Virus record (IMG/VR): IMGVR_UViG_3300042539_000280
Span: 32,001-96,000 of that record
Source of the DNA: a virus
Direction: 5' to 3' (one strand)
Length of the DNA stretch: 64,000 nucleotides
Position numbers and translations under genes: made by a program. Below the pieces are notes generated by a model. It was not told the origin of the DNA and searched no databases. It saw nothing but the letters and a program-made list of their open reading frames with translations. Positions 10,386 to 32,427 of this stretch are shown piece after piece; position 1 is the stretch's first letter, and the number at the start of each line of letters is the position of its first letter.

Positions 10386-12230
10386 TTAGTCCTTTACAAA
10401 GTAGTTAGCAGCAATTTCTTTCTTACGCTCTTCCAACTTTTCGATAGCCTTTTCCTGTAGAGCAACCATTAGGTTCTCTTTCATAGCACCGAGATTATCT
10501 TCCATAATATTCTCGATTGCTTCGTTGATTAGTTTGTTTTCCATTTTAGTTTCCTCGTAAACTGTTTTGGTTGTGCCCATAGCACCAGGCTCTTTGATAG
10601 TATCTGGTTTATTTATGTTAGCATCTTCCCTGAATGGAACATTTTCGTTCCAGTCTTTATCCTGAGAAACTGCTTCGGATGTTAATTTCTTGATAGCAGT
10701 TCGGATACCGTGTTCTCTCTTGGACCAAGTCTTGATATCTGGTTTTGGACCTTCGAGAGACTTCTTACGGGATGCAGCGGCCTTCTTGGTGTATGAACCA
10801 AGAGTTTCTGCCTTTAGTTCATTGATCTGTGTTTCTTCTTCACAATTCCAACGGCGTAGTGCCTTATTGATGCGTGAATCCGGATCTCTTGCTGTCTTAG
10901 CAGAGGTCAAACGCTTCTTCATTCCACCCATGCGTGAACAGAATGATTTACGGCGTGATGCTCTTTTACCAGTAGGATTCTTTTCGGTTACGGCAGTTTG
11001 TAGTTTGGAACCTGGATTCTCACGCTTATAGGCATCAACTGCCTTCTGTGATAGACCATCGGTCTTATCTTTACGATTTACGGACTGCCAATCTTCTTTG
11101 ACAGGCTTGACCTTATTTACGTTAGTACCACCTTGCTTTGAACCTTTATAGGTATCGTCCTTTTCATCGTTCTTTGTGGTGGTTGGTTTTGGTTTGCTAC
11201 CATAAAACTTTGCTCTACGATTTACGTCACCAAAACGGTCGAATGGATGACCGATTAAAGCATAACCTTCTTGTTGATAGATACCACGTTCTGCGGTGTC
11301 AGGATACTTGTTTTCTTCATAGGTTGGACGCTCGGTATAACGAGTAGCAGATGAACCTTGTTCTGAAACTGGTACGCAATTAGGGACTTTCTTTCCACCC
11401 TTCTTCTTCATACCAACCATTTCGTATCCCTTCCAGCAGGGATCTTTATCTTCTTTCATATGTCTTTTTCCTTTGACAAGATCGTATGCTTTCTTTGCAT
11501 AATGAACGCCCGTAGCACCCCAACCTGCGGCGCCCGGTAATGTAGATGCCATTCTAACAACGTCACCCTTTGGTGAACCGTGACCGGATGATGCTTTACT
11601 CATAACATCACCCATGGTATAAATGTTAGCGGCAGTCATTCCTGCCATAGCAATTCTTTTGGCTTTCTTTAGTTTTTCACCTTCAACTTGAACGTCTTTT
11701 CTCATAGCACGAAGATCATTTGTTCCTTCGTATCCAGTCATACCGCCTAATTCATTTAGTTTACTGTATTGTGAAAGACCAATACCTTGTTCATGCAAAG
11801 CACGATTAGATGTTGTTTCGATTTCTTTTGGATTGAAAAAATTATATCCTAATCCAGAATTGTGAAGATCAAGATGTGCCTTTTTGATCCATGCAAACTT
11901 ATTACCGTTCTCGTCCTCATAGGACATAGAGTTTGTATCAATGTATTGTTGAACAAAGTTTGTACCAGCAGGATCACCAGAATAATATCCTAGACCTCTT
12001 ACACCATATGATGTTGATTCTTCCTCAATCTTGGATAGTTTCTTATAATAGTCCAACTTTTCACCAAGATGATCCAAAGCAATCTCTCTGGCAATCTTAG
12101 GATTATTAGTATGTTCTTTTTCTACTTTTATGCCATGCATCAACTGTTTTCTAACCTCAACGGAAGAAACACCATATTTCTTGGCCAAATCATTTACAGT
12201 TGGTGTTGGATTGTTTAGCAGTTTACTCAT
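10386..12230 (-). CDS. Multi-module internal head protein (DUF5661-like, CWKGY motif, DUF6321-like, C-terminal gp67-like)
   Basis: GIKVEKEHT...IALDHL; DPCWKGYEMVGMKKKGGKKVPNCVP; RRKSFCSRMGG...SRINKALRRWNC; ends MENKLINEAIENI...LEERKKEIA. Confidence 0.7.
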   Translation of the reverse strand: MSKLLNNPTPTVNDLAKKYGVSSVEVRKQLMHGIKVEKEHTNNPKIAREIALDHLGEKLDYYKKLSKIEEESTSYGVRGLGYYSGDPAGTNFVQQYIDTNSMSYEDENGNKFAWIKKAHLDLHNSGLGYNFFNPKEIETTSNRALHEQGIGLSQYSKLNELGGMTGYEGTNDLRAMRKDVQVEGEKLKKAKRIAMAGMTAANIYTMGDVMSKASSGHGSPKGDVVRMASTLPGAAGWGATGVHYAKKAYDLVKGKRHMKEDKDPCWKGYEMVGMKKKGGKKVPNCVPVSEQGSSATRYTERPTYEENKYPDTAERGIYQQEGYALIGHPFDRFGDVNRRAKFYGSKPKPTTTKNDEKDDTYKGSKQGGTNVNKVKPVKEDWQSVNRKDKTDGLSQKAVDAYKRENPGSKLQTAVTEKNPTGKRASRRKSFCSRMGGMKKRLTSAKTARDPDSRINKALRRWNCEEETQINELKAETLGSYTKKAAASRKKSLEGPKPDIKTWSKREHGIRTAIKKLTSEAVSQDKDWNENVPFREDANINKPDTIKEPGAMGTTKTVYEETKMENKLINEAIENIMEDNLGAMKENLMVALQEKAIEKLEERKKEIAANYFVKD

Positions 12231-14088
12231 TTGTATTTACTAACTTTCCTCTGTCAGCAATGTGAGTTACTTTACCTTCATTATTCATGTATCTGTTATT
12301 GCCTGCATAAACCAATCCAAGGTCTTTTGCTTCTTCGGAAATAGTTTTCTTCTTAGCAGGCACCTGTTTCTTTTGTTTCATTTTTTCAAGTTCAATCTTT
12401 TTATCCATCATAGTGGATTCATGATCACGATTAGCAAGTTCTGCCTTACCAGGTCCTTCATCAGGTCCTGTAATCTTATCAACTTCTTTTTGAACTTGTG
12501 CCTGTGCAATTTGCTGTTGAGCACCAAAGGCAATCTGGTTCTGCATATCCTGTTGCTGTTGAACCGCTTGTGCTTCGGCATCAGCCTGCATTTGAATTTG
12601 CTGTTGCTGTGCAACGATAGCAGTTTCTTGTTCCATTTCGGCATTGATTTCTTCAATATCCTCGTCGGATTGCATTAGAATATTTTTACGAACCCATAGT
12701 TGTGAATAATACTTACCAACGAAAGGATCAACCTTTGTTAGTGTGTCGAGACGCATATTGAGGAGTTCTGCCTCTTTTAGTTCATCAAAGTTATTGTCTT
12801 TTTTGAAGTCGTACCAAATATCTTCCTTGAACTCTTTCCATTCTTCTTCGGTACAAACCTTCTTAGAAACCAACTGGACTCTTAGTAAGTCATCGAATAG
12901 AATAGAGAACTTATTGCGGAGTCTCTGAATAAACTTGGTAAATTTTAGTTCGTCTCTGGTAATTTCAGTAGAACGACCTAGAGAGAAACCTTGTGATGGT
13001 TCCATACGACCAATTGGAACATTTAGCGAACGATATAGTTTAGACTGGAAATACTTGACATCTTCCAATTCACCAAGGTTACGAGCACCTTCTAGTGTAG
13101 AGATTTCTGTACCTTTTGAACCTTCACGGCGTGGTAACCAAAAGTCCTCAAGCATTGATAGATGCTTACGGTCGTCCTTGATTTCACCAGTATTGGAATC
13201 GTATACCAACTTGTTACGATACTTGACCATGATATCACGGACATACTGTTCCGCTTTGACTGTGGGCATGTTACCAACGTCAATATAGAATACACGGCGT
13301 TCTGGTGCTCTTGATAGACGATAGATAACGGTAGCATCTTCAACCATTCTTAGATTGTTGAATGGCTTGATGGCCTTGTGGAGATAAGAAAGAACCATGG
13401 TCTGTTTAGGATCCATAAGTCCTGAGTTTACGTTTACGATGGAGTCTGGTGCAATCTTGGCACCTAAATTGGTACCTGAACCAATCATACCCTTTTCGTT
13501 ATAAAGATAGTATTCAATCTGTCTGCGGATTAGTTCGATGCCGGTTTGCGGATCACGCATTTTTTGAATTTCACGGATCTTTCTAATGCGACGTGGATCT
13601 ATATACTTTAGTTCTTGAATGCCTGCATCAGGCATAGTTTCGTCTATAACAATATGATAGAACATTCTTCCATCAACGTAGTAACGGCGGAAGATATCAT
13701 GTCCCATATTGTTGAAATTCAGTAATTTTAGAATGAAATTGAACTCGTCCTCAATACGCTTTTTGATAGCAGGAGGAACTTTTAGTTCATCCATGTTGAG
13801 TTCTACGCATTGACCACCATCTTCGACAACGATTGCTTCGTTTACGATTTCGTCAATTGCGGTTTCTACTTCTGGTTGGATTGAAAGTTCACGGTATTTG
13901 GTGATAAGTTGAGTTTCGTTACGGAAGGTGCCATCGAGGTCTACATATGTGCCATAATAACCGGCGCCAGCAACCGTTACTGCACCATCATCATTCTGAG
14001 GCAGTGTAAATGTTTTATTCTTTGGTTCGATTAGTTGCTGATCTTCAACCTTTTTAGGTGAACCGATTTCAAATCCGAAAAGTTTTAT
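12223..14088 (-). CDS. gp20: Portal protein; true start about 98 codons upstream of the ORF-track start, at a non-canonical codon
   Basis: IYRLSRAPERRVFYIDVGNMP..KAEQY, EDFWLPRREG. The frame stays open upstream to (ATA)KLFGFEI...YYGTYVDLDG...ITKYRELSIQPEVETAIDEIVNEAI. Confidence 0.95.
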   Translation of the reverse strand: MKLFGFEIGSPKKVEDQQLIEPKNKTFTLPQNDDGAVTVAGAGYYGTYVDLDGTFRNETQLITKYRELSIQPEVETAIDEIVNEAIVVEDGGQCVELNMDELKVPPAIKKRIEDEFNFILKLLNFNNMGHDIFRRYYVDGRMFYHIVIDETMPDAGIQELKYIDPRRIRKIREIQKMRDPQTGIELIRRQIEYYLYNEKGMIGSGTNLGAKIAPDSIVNVNSGLMDPKQTMVLSYLHKAIKPFNNLRMVEDATVIYRLSRAPERRVFYIDVGNMPTVKAEQYVRDIMVKYRNKLVYDSNTGEIKDDRKHLSMLEDFWLPRREGSKGTEISTLEGARNLGELEDVKYFQSKLYRSLNVPIGRMEPSQGFSLGRSTEITRDELKFTKFIQRLRNKFSILFDDLLRVQLVSKKVCTEEEWKEFKEDIWYDFKKDNNFDELKEAELLNMRLDTLTKVDPFVGKYYSQLWVRKNILMQSDEDIEEINAEMEQETAIVAQQQQIQMQADAEAQAVQQQQDMQNQIAFGAQQQIAQAQVQKEVDKITGPDEGPGKAELANRDHESTMMDKKIELEKMKQKKQVPAKKKTISEEAKDLGLVYAGNNRYMNNEGKVTHIADRGKLVNTNE

Positions 14089-14117
14089 GGCCGTTACTCC
14101 CTATTCATGATGTAGTT

Positions 14118-14156
14118 CCCGTGGAGAGAAATCTCCACGGGGTTTATTATATTTAG
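14118..14156 (-). promoter_or_regulatory. Late promoter CTAAATA (14150-14156) followed by a GC-rich stem-loop in the gp20 leader
   Basis: CCCGTGGAGA-TTTC-TCTCCACGGG inverted repeat at 14118-14141. Confidence 0.7.
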
Positions 14157-14164
14157 GACACTAA

Positions 14165-14731
14165 TTAGATCGAAGCAACCGAATCGGTTGTTGGTAGTGG
14201 GAAGATTGATTCCCACCACTGATATGCTAGTGTAACACTAAATTCTTCAATCTGGTCACCTGAAGCCCAATCAAGATCAATTGCAGCAACGTCAGTTGGA
14301 AATGCACCAACAATGTGATACTGCTTGATCAATTCACCGGTCTTAGCAAACTGTGAAACCCAAGCATCTGCCTGATAAAGGTTAGCAGTTGCTAGTGCAG
14401 GGTTACGGAGGTTGCCAACGTGTGAGTTGAGTCCAGACATCCATAGTTCTAGGTTATTACGGATACGGAAGTTTTCATCGTTGATAACGGTGAAAGACCA
14501 ATCTGTAAATGTGCGGGTACCAGCAACCTTGATTTCACGTCCAAAATATGGAACTGAAATTGAAGATACGCTGTCACCTGGTAGCGATGTTGCTCTTGCC
14601 TTGAAACGAATTTCCTGGTCAAGAGCGGTGAAACCTGCTGCCGGAGGTAGGTTCATCACAACCTCAAATAGAGAGGCACGTGCCCCGTCTAGTTGTAGGC
14701 TTGCTCTGAAATTTTGAACATTAAATGCCAT
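14165..14731 (-). CDS. gp19: Tail tube protein
   Basis: GARASLFEV, V.YFGR.IK.AG.RTF.DW..TVINDE.F, IEEF.VT..YQWW. Confidence 0.97.
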   Translation of the reverse strand: MAFNVQNFRASLQLDGARASLFEVVMNLPPAAGFTALDQEIRFKARATSLPGDSVSSISVPYFGREIKVAGTRTFTDWSFTVINDENFRIRNNLELWMSGLNSHVGNLRNPALATANLYQADAWVSQFAKTGELIKQYHIVGAFPTDVAAIDLDWASGDQIEEFSVTLAYQWWESIFPLPTTDSVASI

Positions 14732-14759: not shown

Positions 14760-16445
14760 TTAGAATTTACCGACGATTTCGGAGAAAGCAACTCCGGTGC
14801 TGACCGCTACGAAGTTCAACTGGATGAAGTTGATTGAGCGGGCTGGCTTGATGTAGATATCACCAACGAAGCGGTTGCTGTCGATGACCTCTGGTGTATT
14901 GTTTGTTTCGTCACAAACTACCTTATAATCAAAAATACCACGACGGCCCTTGACATCACGGAGGAATGGTTCTACTAGAGCAACAAACTGTGAACGGGTA
15001 AATTCATCGTTGAACTCGAATAGAGAATACTTGGCGGCCTTGGAAATTGACTTTTCAAGGGTAATGAATAGGCGACGAACGTTGATACGATCAAATGCCG
15101 ATGGCTTGTTGGTCATTGTCTTATCGCCGTATAGAACTGTTCCTAGACCCTGCATTGTTACAACTGGGTTGATGGAGTTCTTGTATAGGTTATCACGATC
15201 TGTCTGGTTTGGTGACCATGCAAGTTGTGTAACATTCTTGACTAGACCACGATTTAGACCTGCTGGTGAGAACCATGGATCTCTTGCCATGTCTGTGTAT
15301 GCACATAGACCTGCAATGTCACCGTTTAGTGGAACCCAACGATATACCTTGTTATACTTGTCAAACTGCTTCTTCCAACCAGAATCCATAACGGCATAGT
15401 TAGATGGGTTATAGTTTTCTTTGGTTGCAATAATAGCAAGTGTTTCACCACCTTGATTGTTTACAACATCGTCCATTTGTGGAGATAGGAATGTAACAAG
15501 ATCTTTTCTTGATTCAGCAATATTATCGACAACATATTCCGCAACTGTTGAATCATGTGGACCAGTCATTAGTAGTGAAACATCAACTTTATCGATATTG
15601 TTGAATAGATCATAAGCCTGTGTTAGATCACCAGTGGTTGGTGTACCAACTGAACCACCAGATAGTCTTGATGTTACTGTATTGGCAGTATCAAATGTGG
15701 TTGTTAGTGATTCGGAACCCCAATTGGTAACGTCAGCAGGATGCTTTAGAATGTAAAGATACTGTGATCTATCTTCGATTACGTTTACATAGTAGTTAGA
15801 AGAACCATCATCGTTCTTAGCATCAGATGCCTTAGAAACGTATGAGAATTTTTCTAGGATTGTGTTTGGAACACCAGTAAACTTACCACCAGCGTCAACA
15901 ACGATAATGTGCATTTCGTCGTTAGCACCTTGACGATCTTCGGTCCACTTTGATGTGCCTGTTGGACCATTGAAGTTTGGTGAATATTCCCACTGAGCAA
16001 ACTTTGTGGTATTTGCGGAAGAGAACATTGAAACTTTGATGCTATTACCTAGTTCACCAGGATAACGTGCAGCAAATGGGCCAGTATTTGCGGATGCTGA
16101 TAGATCCTTATACTGTAGGTCATAAACGTCTTGGTTCTGAATGACGATATTATCGACACCACCAGTAGCGTTATTTGCCTTAGTTAGATCAGCAGCACGA
16201 ACCAACTGTAAGTTCTGTGCATATGAAAGAAAGTTTGCAGCGGTAAAGAATGATGTAAATGTGTTCTGGCTTGGCTTACCGAACCATCTAACAAGTTCTA
16301 CCTCGTTAGAAATGGTCATAACCTTGTTTACAGGACCCCAATCAAAGTCGCCGGCAAAACCTCCTGCTGTAGTGGATAGTGATGGTACGATTGTAGTCAG
16401 ATCAATTTCGGACCAAATCACTCCAGGGGAAAGTTGATATGCCAT
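14760..16445 (-). CDS. gp18: Tail sheath protein
   Basis: LSPGV...EID.T, PWFSPAG.NRG, FDRINVRRLF, IKPARSINFI.LNFVA. Confidence 0.98.
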   Translation of the reverse strand: MAYQLSPGVIWSEIDLTTIVPSLSTTAGGFAGDFDWGPVNKVMTISNEVELVRWFGKPSQNTFTSFFTAANFLSYAQNLQLVRAADLTKANNATGGVDNIVIQNQDVYDLQYKDLSASANTGPFAARYPGELGNSIKVSMFSSANTTKFAQWEYSPNFNGPTGTSKWTEDRQGANDEMHIIVVDAGGKFTGVPNTILEKFSYVSKASDAKNDDGSSNYYVNVIEDRSQYLYILKHPADVTNWGSESLTTTFDTANTVTSRLSGGSVGTPTTGDLTQAYDLFNNIDKVDVSLLMTGPHDSTVAEYVVDNIAESRKDLVTFLSPQMDDVVNNQGGETLAIIATKENYNPSNYAVMDSGWKKQFDKYNKVYRWVPLNGDIAGLCAYTDMARDPWFSPAGLNRGLVKNVTQLAWSPNQTDRDNLYKNSINPVVTMQGLGTVLYGDKTMTNKPSAFDRINVRRLFITLEKSISKAAKYSLFEFNDEFTRSQFVALVEPFLRDVKGRRGIFDYKVVCDETNNTPEVIDSNRFVGDIYIKPARSINFIQLNFVAVSTGVAFSEIVGKF

Positions 16446-31218: not shown

Positions 31219-32427
31219 TTAGAAATTACCTCCGTCGAGCATTCCAAACTGTGGAACACCAGAACTATTCACTTGTAAGACATTACCTTCGGTACCAGCG
31301 GCGGTAACCTTTAGATCACCCGATGTATTACCGAATAGGATACCGTTTTCGGTGAATGAAGTCTGACCTGTGCCGCCGTATGGGACTTTGACTACGCCGG
31401 TGCTGATATAAGAACCATTAGCAGCATTTGTATTAGCGGCACCGCCAACAACATCAGCATATGCATTGGCCGATGTTCCTACGGAGTTAGCAAATACTCT
31501 TGTATAAGCATTAGCAGAGTCACCAACTACCTGTGCATATGCATTACCGGATGAACCGACAACTACTGCATAAGCATTGGCCGCTGCTCCAACAAAATCA
31601 GCGTAAGCATTGCCTGACTGTCCTACTGTTACAGCATAAGCATTGGCCGCATTTGCCATGAATCCTGCATAATTATTTGCTGATGATCCAACCGAGTCTG
31701 CATAACCATTTGCAGAGTTGGCCATAACACCGGCATAACTATTTGCAGAAGTTGTAGCTGTCTCAACATCTGTATTGGATGCGATATTTAGATAGGTAGA
31801 ACCGTCATTTGTAAAGGTCCACTTTTCTGATGTTTCATTCCATAGAACAGAAACGTTAGCGGATGAACCACGATTGATTTCCATACCTGCATCTTGTGTA
31901 GGTGCTGTAGCACCATCAAGATCGGAATTTAGAACAAAGATATTATCGCTAACAAGTAGTGACTGGGTATTGACATATGTAGTCGTGCCAGTAACAGTTA
32001 GGTTAGCGGTAATGTTTAGATCACCAGTTAGTGTGCCGCCTGTAAATGGTAGATATGTGCTAGATGCATAAGCATTAGCAGAATTGACCATTTCGCCAGC
32101 ATAATTATTAGCAGCAATTGCCGTATTGGCAAGATCAGATGCTACTGTATTTGCTTTATTATATGCAGCATTAGCCTGTGAGTAGGCATCGTTGGCAACC
32201 AATGATGAATTGGCGGCCGCAAACGCAGCATTAGCAACGTTAAAAATTGTGTTTTGCTGATCTACATAAAACTTACCGCCAATGGCAATAACGCCAGTGC
32301 CGGTTGAATCACCGATAAAGAGTTTATCGGATAAAAATGAATACGCCTGTTCGGCAGCAGATAGTGAACCACCTGATGGTGTAGATGTTGTCGAACTTCT
32401 TTTGATTTGAATTGTTGTATTAGACAT
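31219..32427 (-). CDS. Tail fibre segment protein
   Basis: IQIKRSS N-terminal domain; ANAYA repeats; V..GGTG motif; ends LDGGNF. Confidence 0.8.
   Translation of the reverse strand: MSNTTIQIKRSSTTSTPSGGSLSAAEQAYSFLSDKLFIGDSTGTGVIAIGGKFYVDQQNTIFNVANAAFAAANSSLVANDAYSQANAAYNKANTVASDLANTAIAANNYAGEMVNSANAYASSTYLPFTGGTLTGDLNITANLTVTGTTTYVNTQSLLVSDNIFVLNSDLDGATAPTQDAGMEINRGSSANVSVLWNETSEKWTFTNDGSTYLNIASNTDVETATTSANSYAGVMANSANGYADSVGSSANNYAGFMANAANAYAVTVGQSGNAYADFVGAAANAYAVVVGSSGNAYAQVVGDSANAYTRVFANSVGTSANAYADVVGGAANTNAANGSYISTGVVKVPYGGTGQTSFTENGILFGNTSGDLKVTAAGTEGNVLQVNSSGVPQFGMLDGGNF

Follow-up and report, generated by a model that had tools for sequence, protein, structure and literature searches.

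Comparative evidence for an AUA start codon behind an extended Shine-Dalgarno sequence in the portal gene of a freshwater T4-like phage

Initiation at AUA and AUU is inefficient in most settings in which it has been quantified, although the degree varies considerably. In E. coli reporters both codons initiate at ∼1-2% of the AUG level (bioRxiv 10.1101/063800), while AUA reached 7.5% on a truncated phage HB-3 murein hydrolase in E. coli and ∼15% in a temperature-sensitive AUG-to-AUA mutant of T4 rIIB, both as cited in PMC5499595. Higher values, 10-30% of AUG, are reported for S. aureus infC (AUA), ccpN (AUA), citZ (AUA), and cvfC1 (AUU), all of which lie behind extended Shine-Dalgarno sequences (SDs) (PMC13009471). 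The inefficient AUU starts of E. coli infC and pcnB (reviewed in PMC5499595; see also Binns and Masters 2002, cited in PMC13009471) limit expression, and initiation factor 3 discriminates against starts of this class. Natural AUH starts (H being A, C, or U) behind strong SDs are thus already established from infC, pcnB, and ccpN. The 64,000-nucleotide stretch analyzed here (the window; positions 32,001 to 96,000 of IMG/VR virus record IMGVR_UViG_3300042539_000280) carries on its minus strand the gene for a T4-type portal protein, gp20, in which an AUH codon at the start alternates with GTG and TTG among close relatives. With a probability of roughly 0.85, as judged from sequence comparison, this gene starts at AUA 14088-14086 behind an extended SD, as an inherited design and not as damage.

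The locus resembles the S. aureus genes in that a near-cognate AUH codon, conserved among relatives, follows an SD of unusual length with ordinary spacing (PMC13009471). The S. aureus examples are, however, cellular regulators supported by ribosome profiling and reporters, whereas the window presents a phage structural gene with comparative evidence and an SD that lies inside a very short upstream open reading frame (ORF). As in the rIIB mutant, described in PMC5499595, AUA would serve as an initiator in the mRNA of a T4-type phage; the rIIB codon is a laboratory mutation, while AUA or AUU in the portal gene is a natural and conserved state. E. coli infC is autoregulated by its own product, whereas the portal gene carries no sign of feedback. 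What distinguishes the present case is an unusually rich comparative series, together with a possible reinitiation module. The features on which the start assignment turns are as follows.

12223..14088, minus strand: portal gene gp20 as re-annotated here, 621 codons counted from ATA 14088, followed by the stop codon
14086..14088, minus strand: proposed start codon ATA (AUA), aligned with GTG, TTG, or ATT of relatives and identical in contigs of four sequencing runs and in the strain L096
14097..14103, minus strand: extended SD UAGGGAG, 8 nt upstream of ATA, its first three bases doubling as an in-frame TAG stop
13792..13794, minus strand: first canonical in-frame ATG, at which public gene calls begin a 523-aa product; it corresponds to about residue 113 of T4 gp20, in the conserved core

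The portal frame opens after TAG 14103-14101 and reads GGA GTA ACG GCC ATA (14088-14086) AAA CTT TTC GGA TTT. Its first ATG, GTG, or TTG is ATG 13794-13792, which lies 98 codons past the ATA and 102 codons past the TAG; a preliminary description of this start-less 98-codon frame, made from the letters of the window, was accurate in every detail. The identity of the frame is secure (Pfam Portal_T4, E = 4e-175), with the domain beginning at residue 59 counted from the ATA, i.e., inside the start-less part, and residues 43-503 aligning with residues 53-523 of T4 gp20. No other large gene has so long a start-less lead when all frames of at least 150 codons in the 164-kb genome are considered. Within these 98 codons, synonymous codon differences outnumbered non-synonymous ones by 32 to 6 against the relative L004 and by 42 to 11 against L005, and the trend was the same against all 13 relatives compared. 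This predominance of synonymous differences shows that the codons ahead of ATG 13794 are translated and under purifying selection.

Eighty related loci (designated by L numbers) were collected from a scan of IMG/VR, the leader was read in each, and a tree was built from the portal sequences. The tree contains a fully supported near clade of 39 rows, including the window, and a sister clade of 41 rows. In the near clade, the codon two before L-F-G-F is GTG in 20 loci, TTG in 6, ATT in 11, and ATA in one, the window itself, and each of these starts follows an SD 7-8 nt upstream. A canonical GTG or TTG thus occupies the position of the window's ATA in 26 of the 39 loci, among them L004, the closest relative by portal sequence (94-95% amino acid identity), which has GTG. 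Since relatives of the near clade start at this same codon, ATA 14088 is positionally homologous to undoubted starts, and the preliminary proposal of a start at this ATA gains strong support. Sister-clade genes begin with ATG or GTG one or two codons farther upstream. The only near-clade user of ATG is the long-branched L042 (1420-1510), in which the hairpin described below is absent and a basic extension of ∼24 residues (MMAKHPKKSKRSRS...) precedes the usual N-terminus.

The ATT-type loci contain no other canonical in-frame start, except for a GTG overlapping the SD of L005, and they share with the window the leader type ...CATCATG NNN ARG GAG TAR NNNNN ATH. When this pattern was scanned for with the start codon left as NNN, 23 contigs representing 13 distinct contexts were recovered, of which 22 contigs carried ATT, one carried ATA, and none carried ATG, GTG, or TTG. 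L184, a more distant ATT lineage, has the same type of leader with a different hairpin. A wider scan for portal leaders returned distinct contexts with GTG (25), ATG (9), TTG (4), and ATT (2). A rule that ATG is never used holds for the near clade and is broken by the ATG leaders of this wider scan. Weak starts are therefore dominant, and not obligatory, in the portal gene of this freshwater T4-like clade.

The ATA was also found to be reproducible across assemblies. Logan contigs from four runs belonging to four studies (depths 23, 5.5, 9, and 2.7) showed zero differences to 13500-14500 wherever they covered it, the ATA included, so that no sign was seen of the sequencing error at 14086 against which the preliminary description had advised checking. 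The leader and its ATA are likewise unchanged in L096, which comes from another metagenome and shows 213 differences to the window over 4.2 kb (94.8% identity).

The preliminary description had placed a GGGAG SD 8 nt before the ATA. This core is present (14101-14097), with a spacer that falls within 5-10 nt, and the SD is in fact longer, UAGGGAG. ATT-type leaders carry UAAGGAG in its place, with the same spacing. By textbook pairing, UAAGGAG is complementary to the 3' end of 16S rRNA over 7 nt, and UAGGGAG would retain seven anti-SD pairs if one G.U is counted. The GTG and TTG portal leaders have AAGGA only. The SD is thus longer where the start codon is weaker, which parallels the natural AUA and AUU starts of S. 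aureus. In the proposed mechanism, UAGGGAG would place the host fMet-tRNA on the near-cognate AUA, and the resulting portal N-terminus would be (f)Met-Lys-Leu-Phe-Gly-Phe, predicting the peptide (f)MKLFGFEIGSPK. No initiator tRNA of the phage's own was found among the 27 tRNAs of the genome: both tRNAs with a CAU anticodon are paired at 1:72, have anticodon stems without the three G-C pairs that mark initiators, and look like elongator or Ile2 species. The tRNA genes lie outside the window (C1:144713-161618 and C1:96549-96926), mostly in one array, and are accompanied by a permuted tmRNA-like gene called by ARAGORN (tag ANDNNAYEAFALAA).

A simple SD-aware heuristic assigns ATG starts to ∼87% of the genes in this genome, and the neighboring tail sheath (gp18) and tail tube (gp19) genes each combine AAGGAG with ATG behind their own CTAAATA motif. 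A weak portal start would be expected to yield a low, fixed output of the portal, present in 12 copies per head, relative to the AUG-started sheath and tube. While the position and conservation of the start stand on direct comparison, a reduced portal yield and its purpose can only be suggested. In the preliminary description, the weak start and a hairpin upstream of it were together held to throttle portal synthesis; the start-codon half of this proposal is plausible and fits the comparative pattern, whereas the hairpin half found no support, as the SD is free.

Several points weigh against an AUA start as described here. All of the support is comparative, and both host and phage are uncultured. 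The check on the ATA was made on assembled contigs, and the record itself may derive from one of the four runs. The occurrence of ATG in 9 of the 40 distinct leaders of the wider scan indicates that there is no absolute selection against a strong start. Finally, the conserved upstream ORF means that initiation may not be simple 30S binding.

This upstream ORF is the basis of the best surviving alternative. On the minus strand, past the gp19 stop, the leader comprises CTAAATA (14156-14150), a hairpin (14141-14118), ACTACATC, the sequence ATG AAT AGG GAG TAA (14108-14094), CGGCC, and the ATA, and its elements beyond the SD and start codon are as follows.

14094..14108, minus strand: upstream mini-ORF ATG AAT AGG GAG TAA (MNRE*), in another frame than the portal, with the SD inside it and its stop 5 nt ahead of ATA
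14118..14141, minus strand: GC-rich hairpin of 10 bp with loop UUUC, arms 14141-14132 and 14127-14118 (CCCGTGGAGA-TTTC-TCTCCACGGG)
14150..14156, minus strand: late-promoter-like CTAAATA, 8 nt before the hairpin; a putative promoter

Ribosomes might finish the four-codon ORF (AUG 14108 to UAA 14094), be held by the SD, and restart on the AUA. Such termination-reinitiation would be a variant of direct initiation at AUA, and not a replacement for it, and we regard it as possible but improbable. In its favor is the association of the ORF with AUU and AUA leaders: in the first set of leaders, an ATG-started upstream ORF ending between -16 and +8 of the start was present in 6 of 6 distinct AUU/AUA leaders, as compared to 3 of 45 with canonical starts. 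The ORF is mostly four codons long (MNRE*, MFKE*, MFEE*, or MVKE*), with its last sense codon and stop forming the ...GAG-UAR of the SD region. The position of its stop in the window (UAA 14096-14094) is shared with the ATT relatives, and the geometry ATG-N6-GAG-TAR-N5-ATH recurs among them in further variants, including the distant L184 with its different hairpin. Moreover, CATCATG is near-invariant while its flanks vary. On the other side, the upstream AUG is preceded at best by a GGA 8-9 nt ahead, which lies within the 3' arm of the hairpin and is missing in L104. The ORF is also shortened to MF* in L027, L084, and L106 and lengthened in L019. Furthermore, the leaders share common ancestry, so the association possibly reflects a single event, and the ORF may instead be the scar of a homing endonuclease gene.

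Evidence for such a scar comes from relatives in which an HNH homing endonuclease gene stands between the hairpin and the portal, at 876-1505 of L005 (the same contig as L088) and at 13959-14643 of L105, where the copy is frameshifted. The endonuclease ORF ends in ...NRSDDN* or ...RSNDH*, and its TAA overlaps the portal ATT-AAR. Both the L019 mini-ORF (MMNRSNDN*) and the window's ATG AAT AGG (G)AG TAA are homologous to this tail, and the window's mini-ORF looks like a remnant of the last codons of the endonuclease. Leaders of the AUH type fall in three separate parts of the portal tree, and the portal gene is itself a mosaic: ∼13130-13370 (portal nt 720-960) is 90-98% identical to the L027/L028 clade and ∼85% to L004, which is otherwise closest. 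Recombination is by this comparison frequent among these phages. Because the AUH leader is scattered on the tree and the portal is mosaic, recombination probably carries the leader from phage to phage, possibly along with the endonuclease. A tentative extension, which we consider no likelier than reinitiation itself, is that AUG-N6-GAG-UAR-N5-AUH constitutes a compact module feeding terminating ribosomes to AUH, left as a scar of the HNH gene and spread by recombination in replacement of GUG and UUG leaders. The conserved four-codon ORF, the extended SD, and the endonuclease link all go beyond what had been described for this locus.

The other alternatives are far less probable than reinitiation. 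The preliminary description had named ACG 14094-14092 as a second candidate start, which would give M-A-I-K-L-F-G-F. ACG is a near-cognate codon, and the distant loci L083, L051, and L045 have ATG-GCx-ATH at the aligned codons. However, the gap from GGGAG to ACG is only 2 nt, the L027-L034 clade carries GGG and L184 carries GCG at the aligned codon, and the nearest relatives initiate at the ATA position, making this start very unlikely. Slightly less probable again is that the true product is the 523-aa protein annotated in public from ATG 13794, the first canonical start and the choice of gene callers. This protein would lose the equivalent of residues 1-112 of T4 gp20, including the conserved LITKYRELSIQPEVETAIDEIVNEAIV block and ∼40 Pfam positions; the 98 codons preceding its ATG are maintained by selection, and relatives encode the same region behind canonical starts.

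The two weakest explanations merit little weight. In a metagenome assembly whose nearest portal relative has GTG, one might suspect that the ATA arose as an error of assembly or sequencing, or that a defective genome has recently lost an ATG or GTG start to mutation. Either is effectively excluded by the identical contigs of four studies, the persistence of the ATA in L096 despite its 213 differences, the ATT in the same leader of 22 further contigs, and a portal gene that is intact and under purifying selection. Expression through a programmed frameshift from ATG 14108, an out-of-frame ATG 20 nt upstream and near an SD-like sequence, loosely as in prfB, or through readthrough of TAG 14103 from farther upstream, is ruled out by the comparison of relatives: the frame relation between this ATG and the portal varies (the two share a frame, with a TAA, in L027, whereas the offset is +1 in L028 and the window), a slippery site is absent, no ATG, GTG, or TTG lies in the portal frame between TAG 14163 and TAG 14103 from which a recoded TAG could be reached, relatives carry TAA or TGA at this stop, and 7 of the 106 long frames of the genome end in TAG.

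The hairpin upstream of the SD, reported in the preliminary description as a 10-bp stem-loop following a late promoter, is present after CTAAATA and is well conserved, with extensive covariation. Of 53 distinct relatives, 52 have it, at 17-30 nt ahead of the start; their 5' arms come in 41 versions, the stems measure 8-15 bp, and GAAA or UUCG loops are frequent. The observed score was reached by only 1 of 2080 shuffles, and the fold of the whole portal leader has z = -2.3. The hairpin ends 14 nt before the SD and pairs with neither the SD nor the start. An Rfam search returned nothing meaningful at E ≤1. In the window, the loop (14128-14131) is TTTC, while L096 (2417 region) has its reverse complement, GAAA, on identical stems, which suggests an inversion by template switching at the palindrome.

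In the near clade, TAAATA lies 4-9 nt ahead of the hairpin. The window's CTAAATA matches a T4-type TATAAATA-like element at 6 of 8 positions. The motif [ACT]TAAATA is strongly enriched between genes: of 57 coding-strand copies, 17 fall in the intergenic 8% of the genome, including those before gp18, gp19, and gp20. Window sites on the minus strand (3599, 4655, 7604, 8285, 14150, 14754, 16496, 24296, and 49182) lie 25-55 nt ahead of late-gene starts, a distribution that fits the motif being the late promoter of this phage. Because the hairpin is 3-9 nt downstream of a TAAATA-type motif, the late transcript would begin at about the hairpin foot. Late leaders do not in general combine TAAATA with a hairpin, as only two such sites exist in the genome; the hairpin therefore appears to be specific to the portal gene.

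An intrinsic terminator on the transcribed strand was considered for the hairpin and rejected: the 8 nt past it (AACTACAT) hold 2 T, and at least 4 T are present in only 16 of the 53 relatives. A consensus terminator scan made its call on the opposite strand only, where the hairpin (plus-strand 14117-14152) runs into TTTATTATATTT and is scored as an intrinsic terminator; it could keep antisense transcripts from entering the block of late genes. A role as a 5'-terminal stabilizer or transcript barrier is more likely than a block to initiation, and the hairpin could also act as a partial terminator for gp18-gp19 transcripts or as the antisense terminator just described.

The genes upstream of the portal follow the order of T4 on the minus strand (gp18, gp19, gp20).

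14165..14731, minus strand: tail tube gp19 (Pfam Phage_T4_gp19), with ATG start, AAGGAG SD, and its own CTAAATA-type motif
14760-16445, minus strand: sheath gp18

The source record is a 164-kb IMG/VR virus genome of 41% G+C with an estimated completeness of ∼94%, and the sequencing runs in which the stretch occurs come from lakes and other freshwater metagenomes, with no RNA run listed among them. Searched at the nucleotide level, phage genomes gave only two weak cyanophage matches and no close cultured relative. The nearest cultured phages are T4-like phages of the Kyanoviridae type, with a portal N-terminal identity of at most 50% by tblastn. T4 and the Kyanoviridae (Pelagibacter phage Mosig, Synechococcus phage ACG-2014g) share with the window the gp18-gp19-gp20 order, an ATAAATA-type motif past gp19, and a portal N-terminus of the form M-x-x-L-F-G-F. 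In contrast to the window, their portals start with ATG, have no hairpin between promoter and SD, and are only ∼50% identical at the N-terminus.

The expectation that standard gene callers would truncate this protein was borne out. In the public protein collection, this portal appears as precisely the 523-aa product that begins at ATG 13794, on four contigs (NCBI, JGI/IMG, and ENA), and a second truncated portal, P0002, falls in the same 90% cluster. Because common callers accept only ATG, GTG, and TTG, ∼98 residues would be missing in public records from this portal and from those on at least two dozen related contigs, and such truncation distorts phylogenies built on the portal and surveys that use it as a marker gene for freshwater T4-like phages. 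Beyond annotation, GUG, UUG, AUU, and AUA occupy a single homologous codon in the gene for an essential structural protein of low copy number, forming a clean natural series in which SD length shifts in step. This series could serve to test start-codon strength against assembly stoichiometry, and the conserved mini-ORF lends itself to tests of whether ribosomes reinitiate at a non-canonical codon.

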